A stretch of DNA of 64,000 nucleotides from Escherichia coli (GTDB lineage Bacteria; Pseudomonadota; Gammaproteobacteria; Enterobacterales; Enterobacteriaceae), in the NCBI RefSeq assembly GCF_016903815.1, contig NZ_CP069973.1. The stretch is one strand, 5' to 3'. Positions 2,793 through 64,000 of this stretch are shown one piece after another. The position numbers and the translations under genes are program-made. Positions within the stretch are counted from its first letter, which is position 1. Each line of letters opens with the position of its first letter. The notes beneath the pieces are model-generated. The model was not told the origin of the DNA. It ran no database searches and saw only the letters and a program-made list of their open reading frames with translations.

Positions 2793-3752
2793 ATGAAAAC
2801 AGAGACTCCATCCGTAAAAATTGTTGCTATCACCGCTGACGAAGCGGGGCAACGTATCGATAACTTTTTGCGTACCCAATTGAAAGGCGTACCAAAAAGT
2901 ATGATTTACCGTATTTTGCGTAAAGGCGAAGTGCGGGTGAACAAAAAACGTATTAAGCCTGAATATAAACTCGAAGCGGGTGATGAGGTGCGTATCCCAC
3001 CGGTTCGCGTTGCTGAACGGGAAGAAGAGGCGGTTTCGCCACATCTGCAAAAGGTGGCGGCGCTGGCGGACGTCATCTTATATGAAGATGACCATATCCT
3101 GGTGCTGAATAAACCTTCCGGTACGGCGGTACATGGCGGTAGTGGTTTAAGCTTCGGCGTTATCGAAGGTTTGCGGGCGTTGCGCCCGGAAGCGCGGTTC
3201 CTTGAACTGGTTCATCGTCTCGACCGGGACACTTCAGGTGTGTTGCTGGTAGCGAAAAAACGCTCGGCGTTGCGTTCTCTGCATGAGCAATTACGTGAAA
3301 AAGGGATGCAAAAAGATTACCTGGCGCTGGTGCGCGGTCAGTGGCAGTCGCATGTGAAGAGCGTTCAAGCGCCGTTATTGAAAAATATTCTGCAAAGCGG
3401 CGAACGTATCGTGCGTGTGAGTCAGGAAGGCAAACCGTCGGAAACACGCTTTAAAGTGGAAGAACGCTATGCTTTTGCCACCCTGGTGCGTTGTAGCCCG
3501 GTAACAGGGCGTACTCATCAGATCCGTGTTCATACACAGTATGCGGGTCATCCGATTGCCTTTGACGATCGCTACGGTGACCGTGAATTTGACAGACAGC
3601 TCACTGAAGCAGGCACGGGATTAAATCGCCTGTTCCTGCACGCTGCAGCGTTGAAGTTTACTCATCCGGGGACCGGTGAGGTGATGCGTATCGAAGCGCC
3701 GATGGATGAAGGTTTGAAGCGTTGTTTGCAAAAGCTGCGTAACGCGCGCTAA
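2793..3752 (+). CDS. rluC: 23S rRNA pseudouridine synthase RluC
   Basis: 319-aa ORF with RluA-family motifs (HRLDRDTSG), conserved position opposite rne. Confidence 0.93.
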   Translation: MKTETPSVKIVAITADEAGQRIDNFLRTQLKGVPKSMIYRILRKGEVRVNKKRIKPEYKLEAGDEVRIPPVRVAEREEEAVSPHLQKVAALADVILYEDDHILVLNKPSGTAVHGGSGLSFGVIEGLRALRPEARFLELVHRLDRDTSGVLLVAKKRSALRSLHEQLREKGMQKDYLALVRGQWQSHVKSVQAPLLKNILQSGERIVRVSQEGKPSETRFKVEERYAFATLVRCSPVTGRTHQIRVHTQYAGHPIAFDDRYGDREFDRQLTEAGTGLNRLFLHAAALKFTHPGTGEVMRIEAPMDEGLKRCLQKLRNAR

Positions 3753-3783
3753 TACAAGCATATAAACCTGATAATGGGCGGTT

Positions 3784-3856
3784 GGCCTGATAAGGCGTTT
3801 ACGCCGCATCAGGCCGCCAGCACCGATTGCCGGATGCGAAGTAACCGCATCCGGCG
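3784..3856. repeat. REP (repetitive extragenic palindromic) elements
   Basis: Imperfect palindromes ggcctgataaggcgtttacgccgcatcaggcc and gccggatgcgaagtaaccgcatccggcg. Confidence 0.6.
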
Positions 3857-3863
3857 CAAACAA

Positions 3864-4448
3864 CTATCCCATCAGCGGGTTTTTCCCTTCCCGACGTAAC
3901 ATCTGACACAGCGCGATTAGCGGTAAACCAACCAGCGTGTTAGGATCACGCCCCTCTAAACGCTCAAACAGCGTAATGCCAAATCCTTCACTCTTAAAGC
4001 TACCCGCGCAGTGCAGGGGATGCTCTTTACGCACGTAATTATCAATCTCCGCCTCGCTCAGGTGACGGAAATGGACGTCAAAAGGCTCCACTTCTGTTTG
4101 TAGATGCCCATTCGCCGAATTAAACAACGCCAGTCCAGTATAGAAGGTGACGATATTGCCGCTGGCTTTGCGTAATTGCAGACGGGCATTTTCTTCCGTT
4201 AACGGTTTACCGGTGATTTCGCCATCAAGAACACATACCTGGTCTGAACCAATAATTAAATGATCCGGATAACGTGACGCCAGAGATTGCGCTTTTTCTT
4301 GTGCCAGTCGAAGCACCAACTGTCGCGGTGATTCGTCGCTGCGTGGGGTTTCGTCGACCTCTGGTGCTGCACATTCAAAAGAGATTTGCAGTTTTTCCAG
4401 AAGAGCGCGACGCCAGGGCGAGGTGGAGGCTAAAATAAGTTTAGGCAT
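3864..4448 (-). CDS. yceF: Maf-like nucleotide pyrophosphatase YceF
   Basis: ORF 3864-4487; start placed at internal Met ([14 protein letters not shown]) giving 194 aa. Confidence 0.88.
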
Positions 4449-4634
4449 ATTTTTTTCCATCAGATATAGCGTATTGATGATAGCCATTTTAAACTATGCG
4501 CTTCGTTTTGCAGGTTGATGTTCGTTATCAGCACTGAACGAAAATAAAGCAGTAACCCGCAATGTGTGCGAATTATTGGCAAAAGGCAACCACAGGCTGC
4601 CTTTTTCTTTGACTCTATGACGTTACAAAGTTAA

Positions 4635-5168
<534 letters not shown>

Positions 5169-57946: not shown

Positions 57947-59005
57947 GTGCGGGTATTACTTCGACCTGTTCTGGTACCGGAACTTGGGCTGGTGGTGCTA
58001 AAACCGGGCCGTGAATCCATGCCGGTATTCCACAATACCCGGGTACTGGTGGAGCCGGAACCGAAAAGCATGCGTAATCTGTCGTCCGGGGTCGTTCCTG
58101 CCGTTCGCCAGCCGCTGGCGGAGGATAAATCATTACTGCCATTTTTCAGCGACGAACGAGTGATTCGTGCTGCTGGTGGCGCTGGCGCATTGTCTGACTG
58201 GTTACTGCGCCATGTTAAATCCTGCCAGTGGCCACACGGCGATTATCACCACAGTGAAACCGTCATTCACCGTTATGGTACCGGCGCAATGGTGTTGTGC
58301 TGGCACTGCGACAACCAGCTGCGCGACCAGACCTCCGAATCACTCGGGCAACTTGCTCACCAAAACCTGTCTGCATGGATGATTGACGTCATACGCCATG
58401 CAATGAATGGCTCGCAGGAACGGGAATTATCGCTGGCTGAATTATCCTGGTGGGCGGTCCGCAATCAGGTGGCGGACGCGCTACCGGAAGCGGTATTACG
58501 TCGTTCGCTGGGGTTGCGTGCGGAAAAAATCCGCTCAATGTACCGTGAAAGCGACATCGTACCGGGAGAGCAGACCGCCACCAGCATACTGAAACAGCGC
58601 ACAAAAAATCTTGCGCCGCTGCCTCACGCCCACCAGCAACAGAACCCACCACAGGAAAAGACGGTGGTCAGCATTGCCGTTGATCCGGAATCTCCGGCTC
58701 AGTATCTCCAGCGCCAGAAACCACAACGGGAAGAGATGCCTGTATACACGCGCTGGGTAAAAACGCAGAAATGCATGACGTGTGGCAATCAGGCAGATGA
58801 TCCGCATCACATCATTGGTCATGGACTGGGAGGGATGGGAACAAAGGCTGACGATTTGTTTGTTATTCCGCTGTGTCGTAAATGCCATAACGAACTACAC
58901 GCCGGGGTAAAAGATTTTGAAGAAAAACACGGTAGTCAGTTGTTGTTGCTGATTCGTTTTTTAATGCACGCGAGAAATTCGGGTGTTCTGAAGTGGAAAG
59001 CATAA
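57947..59005 (+). CDS. DUF968-family phage protein
   Basis: C-terminal Cys/His cluster CMTCGNQADDPHHIIGHG...PLCRKCHNELH; position before rusA/Q as in Qin (ydfU); true start may be an internal Met. Confidence 0.6.
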   Translation: MRVLLRPVLVPELGLVVLKPGRESMPVFHNTRVLVEPEPKSMRNLSSGVVPAVRQPLAEDKSLLPFFSDERVIRAAGGAGALSDWLLRHVKSCQWPHGDYHHSETVIHRYGTGAMVLCWHCDNQLRDQTSESLGQLAHQNLSAWMIDVIRHAMNGSQERELSLAELSWWAVRNQVADALPEAVLRRSLGLRAEKIRSMYRESDIVPGEQTATSILKQRTKNLAPLPHAHQQQNPPQEKTVVSIAVDPESPAQYLQRQKPQREEMPVYTRWVKTQKCMTCGNQADDPHHIIGHGLGGMGTKADDLFVIPLCRKCHNELHAGVKDFEEKHGSQLLLLIRFLMHARNSGVLKWKA

Positions 59006-59374
59006 ATGACCGAACGCATAGAATTTGTTTTGCCTTACTCGCCGACGGTGAACACTTACTGGCGACGCCGTGGCAGCACATATTTTGTATCAAAAGCCGG
59101 GGAGCGTTATCGCCGGGCAGTGGCGCTTATTGTTCGCCAGCAGCGACTGAAATTAAGCCTGTCCGGACGGCTGGCAATAAAAATTATTGCAGAGCCACCG
59201 GATAAGCGTCGTCGTGACCTGGACAATATTCTGAAAGCACCACTGGATGCGCTGACGCACGCGGGGTTGTTAATGGACGATGAGCAGTTTGATGAAATCA
59301 ATATTGTACGTGGCCAGCCAGTATCTGGTGGACGGCTGGAGATAAGAATTACAGAGGTGGGTGTGCATGAATAA
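59006..59374 (+). CDS. rusA: Holliday-junction resolvase RusA
   Basis: 122 aa; PDKRRRDLDNILKAPLDALTHAG and GGRLEIRITEVG match RusA. Confidence 0.88.
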   Translation: MTERIEFVLPYSPTVNTYWRRRGSTYFVSKAGERYRRAVALIVRQQRLKLSLSGRLAIKIIAEPPDKRRRDLDNILKAPLDALTHAGLLMDDEQFDEINIVRGQPVSGGRLEIRITEVGVHE

Positions 59375-60056
59375 CCAGTATTTACAGTTTGTTCGTGAGC
59401 AACTCATGATTGCCACTGCAGATCTCAGTGGGTCGACAAAATGCCAGCTGGAAGCCTGGCAGGAAAATGCCCTGTTCGATACAGGGCGTTACAGACGCAA
59501 AAAAATTCGTTACCGCGATGAGGTAACCGGAAAAATGATCACGCGGGATAATCCCCCGATCCAGGGTAAACAATCACTGGCGAAAGGCTCATCAATTGCG
59601 CTGGTCAGTCCTGTTGAGTTTGCAACATCATCGTGGCGGCGTGCTGTTCTGGAACTGGAAGAACATCAGAAGGCGTGGTTGTTGTGGTGTTATGGCGGAA
59701 ACATTTGCTGGGAGCATCAGATCGCGATAACGCAGTGGGGGTGGAGTGAATTTAAAACTCAGTCCGGCTCCAGAAAAATTGCAGTGAAAACGCTGGAGCG
59801 TGTGAAGAAGTTGATCTGGCTGGCGGCACAGGATGTCAGAGGATGGGTTACCGGGTGTGAGGTCTACCAGAGACAGGAGCTTGCCAGACTGTGTGGAGTT
59901 AAGCCTGATAACTGGAGCCATAATTATGCGAACTACTGGCGTGAGATGTGCGATATTTTTAAGCGCCTCGATAGAGAATCCTTGATTTGCTCCGTGAAAA
60001 TAAGAGCGCAACAAAAAGCGACCTTTTCACGACGAGATATTGCAAAAGTCAATTAA
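59367..60056 (+). CDS. Putative late-gene antiterminator (Q-like)
   Basis: 229 aa, overlapping rusA stop, directly upstream of a tR'-like terminator and the lysis genes; assigned by position. Confidence 0.5.
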   Translation: MNNQYLQFVREQLMIATADLSGSTKCQLEAWQENALFDTGRYRRKKIRYRDEVTGKMITRDNPPIQGKQSLAKGSSIALVSPVEFATSSWRRAVLELEEHQKAWLLWCYGGNICWEHQIAITQWGWSEFKTQSGSRKIAVKTLERVKKLIWLAAQDVRGWVTGCEVYQRQELARLCGVKPDNWSHNYANYWREMCDIFKRLDRESLICSVKIRAQQKATFSRRDIAKVN

Positions 60057-60117
60057 ATCGCGTATGTTTCGTATAAATCTGATATTTTGCCGATTTTGTA
60101 CGTGATGGCAAAGTAAG

Positions 60118-60146
60118 AAAAAACCACCGCCAGGTGGTTTTTTTTA
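60118..60146 (+). terminator. tR'-like rho-independent terminator downstream of Q
   Basis: gaaaaaaaccaccgccaggtggttttttttat. Confidence 0.75.
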
Positions 60147-60268
60147 TGTCCGAAAATCGCGTCAGTACAGTAAACGCGCTGGTGGTTGCGAATACGGGTC
60201 TTTCAGCTTGCCGGCTTTTTCGACAAGAGTTATTGGTATGTCACGTTAACCGGAAAAGGGAAAAAGAC

Positions 60269-60466
60269 ATGCTAAAACAGCAGGATATGACAGAAGCCGC
60301 CAGAGTGGTGTTTAATGAATTAAGCGTTACCGACCCGGCGACAGTCAGGGAGATTGCACAGAATACTTACCTTTCACGCGAACGCTGCCAGTTAATACTG
60401 ACCCAGCTTGTTATGGCGGGTCTGGCAGACTATCAGTTTGGTTGTTACAGACACCTTCAGTCCTGA
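60269..60466 (+). CDS. Hypothetical small protein
   Basis: 65 aa from ATG 60269 (MLKQQDMTEAARVV...) with RBS aaggg; stop lies inside a terminator hairpin. Confidence 0.35.
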   Translation: MLKQQDMTEAARVVFNELSVTDPATVREIAQNTYLSRERCQLILTQLVMAGLADYQFGCYRHLQS

Positions 60467-60478
60467 AGGCTTTTTTAT
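60454..60478 (+). terminator. Rho-independent terminator
   Basis: ccttcagtcctgaaggcttttttattt. Confidence 0.6.
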
Positions 60479-60835
60479 TTGTGGTAAATGGGCGGCTGGT
60501 GGGTGTGGTGGTTGTTGCTTTCCCGTTGCTGAAAAAGAAAACGCCAGACTGTTAGCCGGGTATCAGTTAGCGGGAGAAATTTTTAAATACTTCACAATTC
60601 AGGCGGTTGACTGTTGTCTGGTTTGCGGGGAGTTTGTTAAAAGAAACTGGCATGGTGAATCCCCCTGTGCGGAGGGGCAATCAGCGAGTAGGTATATGGG
60701 ATAATCGCGGATTCAGGTGCTGGTACTGAATTCACCGGGAGGCACCCGGCACCATGCAATGGCACATAGCGCCACTCTCCAGCCCCTCTCCGGAGGGGCT
60801 GTTTATATTGATTTTGTCAGATGTGAGTAAACTCC

Positions 60836-61171
60836 TTATGGACTTTGTTGTTTTAGCCCATAAGGACATATTTGCAGAGTGCAACGATTATTAAAGCATT
60901 CATTCAATACGTTATCTGTATTTGTAGGGCATTCCTGGCTGTTTTTGATTAAATTCCAGAATGTTTTATTGAATGGTACTACGTTGTAAATGGTTACAGG
61001 TAGCACTTTGTTATTGAGCATGATACCTGTGTGAGTCAGTGTAAATATACTTTCAGGAGGTAAGAAAGCATCCGATTGATACCAGATTATTAATTTTATT
61101 TTACTCCATATGACTGAAAAAGATATTCCGCATGATGGCTGGATAACTGTATCAATCACAATCCACTTCAT
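60836..61171 (-). CDS. Hypothetical protein in AT-rich island (antisense to the late operon)
   Basis: 111-aa ORF open despite AT-rich (stop-codon-prone) sequence; four Cys in the C-terminal third; AT-rich upstream region. Confidence 0.4.
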
Positions 61172-61416
61172 TTAGTTTCCTTGTTTATGCCTTGCTGGTG
61201 ATGTTCTGAAAAGTATAAATGATATTTTTGATTGTAAACCATAGAGCAGAATTATTTTTCTGATGTTGTTTATTGTTTATTTAAATGCAGGGTGGTTTAT
61301 ATCTCGTCTTGTAGTTTATCCATGCATATCTGCTTGATGATGAGGTTTTTATTTAAGGTATGGTTTTGTGTTTTTTCTGTATTACATGTCAGGTATTTTA
61401 AAGAATCATTTTTCAG

Positions 61417-61620
61417 ATGGTGGAAAGAACCATGGCATTTAAACACTATGATGTTGTCAGGGCGGCGTCGCCGTCAGATCTTGCGGAAAAGCTGACACAT
61501 AAACTGAAAGAGGGCTGGCAGCCGTTTGGTAGTCCGGTGGCCATAACCCCTTATACCCTGATGCAGGCGATTGCAGCAGAAGGTGATGTGGTGGTCAGTG
61601 GTGCAACTGAGCCGGAGTGA
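61417..61620 (+). CDS. Hypothetical small protein
   Basis: 67-aa ORF; stop overlaps the next small ORF start (GTGA). Confidence 0.4.
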   Translation: MVERTMAFKHYDVVRAASPSDLAEKLTHKLKEGWQPFGSPVAITPYTLMQAIAAEGDVVVSGATEPE

Positions 61621-61778
61621 TACTACGTCATCGTACTGGCCCGGCATTCCAGGCCATAAAAGACGGTCTGGCAGTGGGACTAAATGCACTGACGCTGACG
61701 GATATTACCAAAAATGCAACGTATGGCGTTGAGATAGAAAGTCTGGTGCTGGAGATAAATGCACCGGCATCATCATAA
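61617..61778 (+). CDS. Hypothetical small protein (translationally coupled)
   Basis: Hand-translated 53-codon frame from GTG 61617; below the ORF-track cutoff. Confidence 0.25.
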
Positions 61779-61927
61779 AAAGTGAGCCAGTCAAATGGAA
61801 GGTATCGTTAAACTCACCGGTAGTGTCAGTGGGTCGTCTGAGACGCCTGCATGAGTTATCAGAGCCATCAGTACTTAACTGGTGGCTTTTTTATTGTTGT
61901 CAGCTTCCGGATAACGGGAGACGGGGT

Positions 61928-62143
61928 ATGTACCAGATGGAAAAAATCACAACAGGTGTGTCATACACCACGTCAGCGGTGGGAACGGGCTACTGGTTCC
62001 TGCAGTTGCTGGACAGGGTTTCCCCGTCTCAGTGGGCGGCAATAGGCGTGCTGGGGAGTCTGCTGTTTGGGCTGCTGACATATCTGACTAACCTGTATTT
62101 CAAAATCAAAGAGGACCGGCGTAAGGCGGCGCGGGGAGAGTAA
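61928..62143 (+). CDS. S: Class II pinholin, phage 21 S-type
   Basis: [51 protein letters not shown] closely matches recalled S21; dual start motif M-Y-Q-M at 61928/61937. Confidence 0.88.
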
Positions 62144-62147
62144 AGTG

Positions 62148-63038
62148 ATGAATAAAAAATATGAACTGGTTGTTAAGGGGATAAATAATTACGGGGATAA
62201 GGTTACTGTTACTGTGAAGTCGGAAGGTGACGGGCAAGCGTCGCTGTTGTTGCCAGATGTGGCGATTAGTCTTGACCGTACTGAAGGTGCCACGCTGGAG
62301 TTTTACGAAGCTGAGGCGAAAAAGCAGGCGAAGCAGTTTTTCATGGATGTTGCTGCCGGGTTATGTGAATGGAACGAACCGTTGCCGGAAAAGCGCCCCG
62401 TAATTTTAGAGGCGCAGGATGTGTTGATAACCTACAAAGGAAAGCTACCGGGAAGAATTACTTGTTCTCTGAAGATGCCGCCGTCAACACTGCGGTCAGA
62501 AAAAGATGATGTTGAATCACGTATTGAAAAACTGGAGAGCTACGTCGTTGAGCTGAATAAGAAATGGTCGATATTGGTGCCTTCTGGCGATGAAAAGCAG
62601 TTTGCTGCGTTTGACGATTATTGTCGGAAAGTGATGAGCAGAAATCTCGCAGAGTGTTTCAGTATTCATAATGATAATTTCAGTGACCCGGAATGGGAGT
62701 GTAACCGGCCATCCTTTGTTGTATCCGGTGATGCTGGGAAAATAACCATCTCAGAAAATGGGAAAGTAACACCTCCATCGCACCAGCACAGTGAGGAGCT
62801 CATTGAATTTGCCATTGATTACCTGAAGAACAATAAAAAGCAGGGGCTGATGAAGCGCGTTGGCCGTTGCATGGGATATCTTCAGGTAGCCGCTGAGATT
62901 GAAGCGCTGGCCAGTGGTGCTGATAAGGATGCAATTGTGCGGGAGGCTCTTCTTCGTGATTTTAATACTCCACCCTTTAAAAAAGTGCCGGCTTACTGGC
63001 TTCATCCGGGGCTGACTTATCTTAAAGTGCGTATTTAG
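62148..63038 (+). CDS. Hypothetical 296-aa protein inserted between holin and endolysin
   Basis: ATG 62148 five nt after the holin stop with RBS ggggagag; no recognised catalytic motif. Confidence 0.6.
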   Translation: MNKKYELVVKGINNYGDKVTVTVKSEGDGQASLLLPDVAISLDRTEGATLEFYEAEAKKQAKQFFMDVAAGLCEWNEPLPEKRPVILEAQDVLITYKGKLPGRITCSLKMPPSTLRSEKDDVESRIEKLESYVVELNKKWSILVPSGDEKQFAAFDDYCRKVMSRNLAECFSIHNDNFSDPEWECNRPSFVVSGDAGKITISENGKVTPPSHQHSEELIEFAIDYLKNNKKQGLMKRVGRCMGYLQVAAEIEALASGADKDAIVREALLRDFNTPPFKKVPAYWLHPGLTYLKVRI

Positions 63039-63074
63039 TGGGCCAGGGACAGCGGCTGAATATTTAATATATCC

Positions 63075-63608
63075 ATGAACACCAAAATCAAATACGGCCT
63101 GTCGGCTGCCGTTCTGGCGCTGATTGCCGCTGGTGCGCCTGCGCCTGACATTCTCGACCAGTTTCTGGATGAAAAGGAAGGCAACCACACCACGGCATAC
63201 CGTGATGGTGCAGGTATCTGGACCATCTGCCGTGGTGCCATCATGGTGGATGGCAAACCTGTCGTTCCGGGCATGAAGTTGTCGAAGGAAAAATGCGACC
63301 AGGTTAACGCCATTGAGCGTGATAAAGCGCTGGCGTGGGTGGAGAAAAACATCAGAGTGCCGCTGACCGAACCCCAGAAAGCGGGGATCGCGTCATTCTG
63401 TCCGTACAACATTGGTCCCGGTAAGTGTTTCCCGTCGACGTTTTACAGACGAATTAATGCTGGTGATCGAAAAGGTGCCTGCGAAGCGATTCGCTGGTGG
63501 ATTAAGGACGGTGGCAGAGACTGCCGTATTCGTTCAAACAACTGTTACGGTCAGGTATCCCGTCGTGACCAGGAGAGCGCGCTGGCGTGCTGGGGTATCG
63601 ACAGATAA
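63075..63608 (+). CDS. R: SAR endolysin (T4-type lysozyme, GH24)
   Basis: Gly/Ala-rich N-terminal SAR segment; catalytic E-x8-D-x5-T (EGNHTTAYRDGAGIWT). Confidence 0.88.
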   Translation: MNTKIKYGLSAAVLALIAAGAPAPDILDQFLDEKEGNHTTAYRDGAGIWTICRGAIMVDGKPVVPGMKLSKEKCDQVNAIERDKALAWVEKNIRVPLTEPQKAGIASFCPYNIGPGKCFPSTFYRRINAGDRKGACEAIRWWIKDGGRDCRIRSNNCYGQVSRRDQESALACWGIDR

Positions 63609-63765
63609 GCAGAATATTTTGCTGAAAAATGAGGAATGGCCACGCGGGCGGATAACACGAAATCCTGCGAACTGGCGAAACGTAAGTGAATAAAAGTAAA
63701 AACCCCGTTTGTTGGCACCAAGCGAGGTTTTGTGTTTCTGACCTTGAGTAAGGCAAGGGAGAACA

Positions 63766-63947
63766 TGGCGAAGTGTAAACGAATTCTGTTGAGGTTGACT
63801 ATGAAAAATGGCCTTGAACTGAAAGCGCCTGTAACTGATGACATCAGCAGAGCACTGGCTTTTGCCATTAAGTGGGTGGCGGTCGGTGTTGCTGTGTCCC
63901 CGATGCTGTATGGGCTGGCAAAACTGGTCATTGCGTTGAAATCGTGA
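63766..63947 (+). CDS. Putative small membrane protein downstream of endolysin
   Basis: 59 aa from ATG 63766; C-terminal hydrophobic segment; does not look like Rz/Rz1. Confidence 0.3.
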
Positions 63948-64000
63948 AGGGAGGATTAAGCATGTCAGACAAACTCATAACGCTGGCGAAGATCCTCTGT

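Follow-up and report, generated by a model that had tools for sequence, protein, structure and literature searches.

The window, that is, the whole 64,000-nucleotide stretch of Escherichia coli DNA analysed here, carries host chromosome in its first ~43 kb, and its mapping to NZ_CP023820 (1255897–1303943) places a lambda-like prophage, located between potC and potB, at ~43,000–64,000 of the window. Integrase, dicB, hokD, rem, DUF968, rusA, and Q (59361–60056) are found upstream of the locus considered here, and a complete lambda-type head and tail module, with a gpE-type capsid and a gpD-type decoration protein, is found downstream. Ahead of the lysis genes, the program-made list of open reading frames gives two small frames on the plus strand, ORF1 at 61417–61620 (67 aa, ATG start) and ORF2 at 61617–61778 (53 aa, GTG start), which are read in different phases and overlap by GTGA at 61617–61620. 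This list bears out the two frames, their coordinates, and their overlap as given in a preliminary description of the locus, which also placed the pair immediately upstream of the holin; the latter holds only approximately, since the holin starts at 61928, 149 nt past the ORF2 stop, with a hairpin in between. The features of the locus are as follows (L002 is the prophage locus of E. coli CCUG 73778, and L001 that of strain 7/2).

60836..61171, minus strand: iraM-like anti-adapter gene (RssB inhibitor; NCBIfam NF007393, 162 bits versus a cutoff of 121)
61432..61620, plus strand: 5' remnant of a nanS-p-type esterase gene (ORF1 proper), codons 1–62 followed by a premature TGA
61617..61778, plus strand: ORF2, with codons 1–7 out of frame and codons 8–53 plus the stop being the 3' end of the esterase gene
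61618..61620, plus strand: premature stop TGA, TGG (Trp63) in intact genes according to the base-by-base alignment to L002
61636..61651, plus strand: deletion junction, the one surviving copy, CTGGCCCGGCATTCCA, of an imperfect 16-nt direct repeat
61861..61895, plus strand: terminator-like hairpin and T-run (consensus scan; 12-bp stem and 5-nt loop, hairpin at 61861–61889)
61928..62143, plus strand: class II (S21-like) holin, the first lysis gene (RefSeq, strain 7/2; L001 3079–3294)

The true start of ORF1 is almost certainly the ATG at 61432, which yields a product of 62 aa and is preferred because both the intact homologue and the RefSeq annotation begin there. The ribosome-binding sequence GGTGGAAAG is located 6–14 nt upstream of this codon; the ATG at 61417, which adds five codons (MVERT), falls within this ribosome-binding region and has no Shine–Dalgarno sequence of its own. 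At the beginning of ORF2, GGAG directly abuts the GTG, leaving zero Shine–Dalgarno spacing. No sigma-70-like promoter was found on the plus strand in 60000–62200, so a promoter specific to the ORF pair was discarded. Similarly, a known RNA overlapping ORF1 or ORF2 was rejected, as an Rfam scan of 58000–64000 returned only STnc100 and a sub-threshold STnc370, both outside 61417–61778. The terminator-like hairpin that precedes the holin is also present 3' of the intact esterase gene in L002, and lysis gene expression past 61861–61895 would need Q-mediated read-through.

A megablast search with positions 61350–61850 of the window against 5426 complete E. coli genomes revealed that the entire stretch recurs in about 836 of them, where it is annotated as a 'DUF1737 domain-containing protein' followed by a 'hypothetical protein', and that its initial ~300 bases additionally match large genes for a 'SASA family carbohydrate esterase' at their 5' end, near-full-length esterase genes being present in 1392 of the same 5426 genomes. 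One of these intact genes is syntenic with the locus studied here, since L002 displays the order iraM (minus strand), a 1854-nt esterase CDS, class II holin, YdfR, and lysozyme. Moreover, iraM is annotated as the upstream neighbour at decayed and intact loci alike (L001, L002, L058, and L059), which defines the synteny. Between iraM and the holin of L002, the esterase is encoded by one continuous ORF of 617 aa (3083–4936), so that the continuous frame that the preliminary description had proposed to look for in related prophages does exist. The CDS start at L002 3083 corresponds to position 61432 of the window. Window positions 60700–61651 align without gaps to L002 2351–3302 (BLAST, 99.3% identity) and 61636–62182 align to L002 4794–5341 (96% identity), the flanks thus being 96–99% identical, and within the second block positions 61636–61778 correspond to L002 4794–4936, where the CDS ends. 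At the protein level, the ORF1 product is 100% identical to residues 1–62 of the L002 esterase, and codons 8–53 of ORF2 encode its last 46 residues with three substitutions (43 of 46 identical). In strain 7/2, which is 100% identical to the window, RefSeq already describes ORF1 as a pseudogene ('DUF1737 domain-containing protein, incomplete, missing C-terminus') and ORF2 as a hypothetical protein.

The intact L002 protein comprises DUF1737 (residues 3–50), a SASA domain (66–262), and DUF6645 (467–577); its residues 59–379 match the structure of E. coli NanS/YjhS (PDB 3pt5), and residues 421–613 match that of the C-terminal domain of NanS-p (PDB 6yp6). A recent origin of the intact 617-aa genes by fusion of two small ancestral genes is contradicted by these solved domain structures. 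Prophage sialate O-acetylesterases of the NanS-p type have their genes in the late region of lambdoid phages, Stx phages included, and have been shown to cleave acetyl groups off Neu5,9Ac2 and mucin glycans (PMC8065619, PMC7366253, PMC10462455). NanS-p of phage 933W (z1466/933Wp42) and of phi24B (gp84/vb_24B_21) occupies the same late-region slot, from Q (or stx) to the holin. Members of this family consist of a single ORF of ~615–645 codons between Q/stx and the holin, and the window allele retains this position but not the continuity. In comparison with a functional NanS-p, it has lost the SASA domain and most of the lectin-like domain and contains a premature stop. Concerning domain content, ORF1 contains the complete Pfam DUF1737 domain (PF08410; E = 5e-17, residues 8–55 of the 67-aa form, model positions 1–53 of 53), while ORF2 matched no Pfam family, and the NCBIfam search returned nothing for either ORF. 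A search for the SASA catalytic domain and its GQSN block found no match left in ORF1 or ORF2, and only the 46 terminal residues of the ~200-residue C-terminal jelly-roll domain (DUF6645; PDB 6yp6) are left, in a frame different from that of ORF1.

The comparison with phage protein families leads to the same gene. Both ORFs match the two ends of the 634-aa full-length family phrog_143, ORF2 doing so at positions 582–632. In addition, ORF1 matches the 67-aa family phrog_2036 from end to end, and ORF2 matches families of 65 aa and 90 aa. The families phrog_2036, 9498, 12088, 6393, and 3591 all map onto phrog_143. Such small families, whose profiles measure 67, 113, 65, 90, and 265 aa, are simply pieces of the full-length one and represent decayed nanS-p alleles listed as ORFs in their own right.

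Two lesions separate the window allele from the intact genes. A G-to-A change at 61620 converts the TGG codon of Trp63 of the intact genes (within EPEWYYVIVLAGQSN) into TGA (W63*), so that the remnant proper, codons 1–62, spans the complete DUF1737 domain and the linker. The second lesion is a deletion. The intact gene carries two copies of an imperfect 16-nt direct repeat, CTGGCCGGGCAATCCA at L002 3287 and CTGGCCCGGCATTCCA at L002 4794, of which only the latter survives at the junction, the crossover being located within CTGGCC (61636–61641). The missing segment amounts to 1507 bp (3n+1), as deduced from the difference in offset between the two BLAST blocks, which overlap by 16 nt. In the protein, the left repeat copy corresponds to LAGQSN, near the beginning of the SASA domain; in SGNH/SASA esterases, this is the block-I motif with the nucleophile. 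The deletion removes L002 residues ~69 to ~571, that is, 502 codons that include the entire catalytic domain. Thus, no esterase can be produced from this locus, because the catalytic domain is deleted and a premature stop is present. Even if the TGG were restored, ORF1 would still stop 13 codons later, because the deletion shifts the frame. The alternative contemplated in the preliminary description, a single gene broken by a frameshift, was therefore right in that a single gene is involved, as the alignment to L002 demonstrates, but the damage consists of W63* and a 1507-bp out-of-frame deletion and is no simple frameshift at the overlap.

Both unusual features of the pair can be explained by these lesions. 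The GTGA overlap arises because the G-to-A change at 61620 turned the TGG of Trp63 into TGA, whereas the GTG already existed in the sequence GAG-TGG. Read from this GTG, intact genes reach a stop after 17 codons; in the window, the frame remains open as far as the native stop because the 3n+1 deletion joins the GTG phase to the native 3' frame of the esterase. As a result, codons 1–7 of ORF2 (GTG to ACT, MILRHRT) are an out-of-frame reading of the 5' part of the esterase gene, and codons 8–53 and the stop (61776–61778) are its native last 46 codons and stop, residues 8–53 corresponding to the last strands of the C-terminal lectin-like domain. The coding-like composition reported for ORF2 is therefore not due to chance, since 46 of its 53 codons keep the native reading frame of the parent gene, but it is no sign of a gene pair.

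The remnant alleles provide a further line of evidence, namely a set of 46 junction-bearing alleles covering 61432–61778, which represent 16 haplotypes, with one obviously recombinant allele excluded from the change counts. ORF1 exhibits six distinct nonsynonymous changes (H5Y, D7A, S13P, S13A, W29G, and M44I) versus one synonymous change (S56S), W29G altering the conserved EGWQP motif of DUF1737, and ORF2 exhibits eight versus two. Considering both ORFs, 14 nonsynonymous versus 3 synonymous changes over 253 nonsynonymous and 89 synonymous sites give an omega of ~1.5–1.9, these being small numbers (17 changes) counted as distinct site changes and not on a phylogeny. The probability that at least 14 of 17 changes are nonsynonymous is 0.32 under omega = 1 and 1.3e-4 under omega = 0.2; for ORF1 alone, with seven changes only, the corresponding values are 0.46 and 0.014. 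This result is conservative, because variation imported from intact paralogues would bias the counts towards fewer nonsynonymous changes. Thus, the substitutions among the remnant alleles look neutral. Neither ORF has acquired an indel or an extra stop in 45 of the 46 alleles, which says little, since the alleles differ from one another by no more than about 2%.

Regarding the order of the two lesions, a junction-spanning pattern with N at the nonsense position retrieved 49 viral contigs, with TGA in 49 of 49, and the junction with TGG was found neither in the 5426 complete E. coli genomes nor in these 49 contigs. An exact 42-mer search for the undeleted gene carrying the same TGA yielded two E. 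coli genomes and no viral contig. These German isolates, E. coli 20377 (L059 2433–4286) and strain 22919, harbour a full-length esterase gene with W63*, and the L059 allele differs from L002 by one base, W63* being the sole difference. This TGA-only allele is not the direct ancestor of the window allele, because it differs from the 3' piece of the window at seven sites, and its W63* may represent either an independent recurrence or a gene conversion from a remnant allele. The data would fit a nonsense mutation followed by the deletion, given that no allele combining the deletion with TGG was found and that a TGA-only allele exists, but would also fit a single origin. The same esterase gene has evidently decayed independently elsewhere, although gene conversion may account for L059. 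At L058 (2084–2398), a different deletion keeps codons 1–105 and joins them to the region upstream of the holin; at L003 (3001–3282), an IS66-associated truncation follows codon 94; and in phage Lys8385Vzw (L057 2001–2090), Q30* lies inside DUF1737. Each decayed nanS-p allele has a lesion of its own, that of the window being W63* together with the 1507-bp repeat-mediated deletion.

Taken as a whole, ORF1 and ORF2 are, with a probability of roughly 93%, the remains of one prophage nanS-p-type sialate O-acetylesterase gene that underwent ordinary decay. The common origin of the ORFs, the two lesions, the loss of the esterase, and neutral-looking drift are shown by the comparisons above. In intact relatives, the gene is a 617-aa ORF combining a DUF1737 capsid-binding domain, a SASA esterase domain, and a lectin-like DUF6645 domain, located in the iraM–holin slot and expressed from the Q-dependent late operon. 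The change of Trp63 to a stop left ORF1 as the part before that stop, and the out-of-frame deletion between imperfect repeats, of a kind typical of slippage or illegitimate recombination, started at the LAGQSN codons and eliminated all of the catalytic domain and the greater part of the C-terminal one. ORF2 is an accident, in which the GTG of GAG-TGG opens the -1 phase and the deletion supplies the last 46 codons, and the apparent GTGA 'coupling' signal is a by-product of the nonsense mutation. Downstream of Q and of an STnc100-type leader RNA, the locus belongs to the late transcription unit running into the lysis genes. Since the native ATG at 61432 and GGTGGAAAG are kept, translation of ORF1 from its native start probably persists and, once the late operon is switched on upon induction, would yield a 62-aa DUF1737 fragment. 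ORF2, in turn, is expected to be translated poorly or not at all, because GGAG abuts the GTG without spacing, and its translation could take place only via inefficient termination–reinitiation; the product would be unable to fold, as it constitutes a 46-residue piece of a ~200-residue beta-sandwich. As a pair, neither ORF would have a selected function. Counting against decay, the remnant occurs widely, in about 836 of 5426 complete genomes, 45 of 46 alleles carry no new indel or stop, and ORF1 keeps a complete domain, the native start, and the Shine–Dalgarno sequence, so that a residual role of the fragment is possible.

The role that could be envisaged for such a fragment is that of a useful stand-alone DUF1737 protein that binds to or decorates the capsid of this prophage, ORF2 being irrelevant. 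In phi24B, the DUF1737 domain of gp84 (NanS-p) is described as a capsid-binding domain that sits as a hexamer on the central hexons, and only NanS-p residues 2–57 stay on the T=9 capsid after processing; moreover, single-domain proteins are the commonest architecture of the family (2528 of about 3000) (preprint 10.64898/2026.04.10.717836). As translated, ORF1 likewise consists of one complete domain of ~60 aa, with the native start and Shine–Dalgarno sequence; W63* releases almost exactly the fragment retained by phi24B (1–62 versus 2–57), in a late operon upstream of the holin and in a prophage whose head and tail module is complete. It would follow that W63* created a minimal, constitutively 'pre-processed' capsid-binding peptide, made late and displayed on lambda-like heads, as a functional decoration gene in the process of emerging, an outcome that must be regarded as unlikely. 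This prophage is lambda-like, with a gpE-type capsid and a gpD-type decoration protein of its own, and not a podovirus of the T=9 phi24B type, and the evidence for capsid binding so far comes from a single preprint, which deals with another phage. In the sub-lineage of the window allele, the C-terminal half of DUF1737 and the linker are unlike those of the 933W/Min27 (phi24B) type, from which ORF1 diverges after ~residue 33, and the SISSP processing motif is missing. Furthermore, the six nonsynonymous changes versus one synonymous change in ORF1 include W29G in the most conserved motif, and other decay alleles destroy the domain itself, as Q30* does in phage Lys8385Vzw. In contrast to the single-domain DUF1737 proteins of phages and prophages, the ORF1 form goes back to a three-domain gene that was recently hit by a nonsense mutation, and its seven changes display no sign of purifying selection. 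A stand-alone capsid-binding function of ORF1 is unlikely.

Far less credible is the proposal of the preliminary description that the ORFs form a type II toxin–antitoxin or lysis-timing module translationally coupled through GTGA. The likeness is superficial, in that two neighbouring small ORFs overlap by 4 nt beside the lysis cassette, to which a weak PADLOC match of ORF1 to AbiEii may be added (E = 0.007, 13.8 bits, 37 residues). This match, which falls inside the DUF1737 domain, does not rise above noise, and PADLOC returned no match for ORF2, which is a domain fragment without a Pfam family and without Shine–Dalgarno spacing. Both ORFs come from one esterase gene and their overlap was made by a nonsense mutation; in addition, no purifying selection is seen among the 46 alleles, where an omega of 0.2 is rejected (P = 1.3e-4). 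Neither two independent folds nor a known toxin or antitoxin family was found, and the intact homologue effectively refutes a toxin–antitoxin or defence module, so that the proposed regulatory pair turned out to be pieces of one gene with neutral-looking substitutions. Programmed ribosomal frameshifting at the overlap, by which both frames would be read as one gene, can be given practically no weight. Although the frames do overlap in different phases, no slippery heptamer occurs at 61610–61620, the fused polypeptide would have no catalytic domain and would consist of a complete domain attached to a partial one, and this reading was rejected because in the intact homologues the two parts belong to a single frame with 1507 further bases between them.

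The decay of a nanS-p-type gene has consequences mainly for annotation. Several small PHROG families, like the 53-aa 'hypothetical protein' WP_001309421.1, are nanS-p fragments and not genes, and such fragments should not be mined as candidate toxin–antitoxin systems or lysis regulators. Moreover, nanS-p is discussed as a fitness factor for the use of mucin-derived sialic acid, and the prophage lineage in which its catalytic domain is lost is present in about 15% of the complete E. coli genomes. Counts of DUF1737 or nanS-p matches consequently overestimate the esterase capacity, because the catalytic domain is gone in this common remnant allele. If the stand-alone reading of ORF1 were true, the common remnant would not be a dead relic but an emerging decoration gene, functional and of a single domain. 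The locus represents the ordinary pseudogene decay of a known prophage gene, partly flagged by RefSeq before, and no new biology is implied.

Several observations concern the neighbouring genes. In the phage late region, the stretch that separates Q from the esterase remnant contains the iraM-like gene in antisense orientation, an arrangement that recurs beside the intact esterase genes of L002 and L059. Between Q and iraM, the plus strand contains a match to the Rfam sRNA STnc100 (60621–60810; 132 bits versus a gathering score of 47) that ends at a GC-rich terminator-like hairpin (60780–60801); by its position, this element looks like the pR'–tR' leader transcript for Q antitermination. Downstream of the holin, a plus-strand ORF of 297 aa (62145–63038) precedes the lysozyme gene and matches the 296-aa family phrog_1085 from end to end. 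In RefSeq, 62148–62483 is nevertheless listed as the truncated pseudogene of a 'YdfR family' protein. YdfR-like sequence (phrog_406) makes up the N-terminal ~114 aa of this ORF and an extension the remainder; the gene is probably a longer variant that is intact and has been wrongly labelled.
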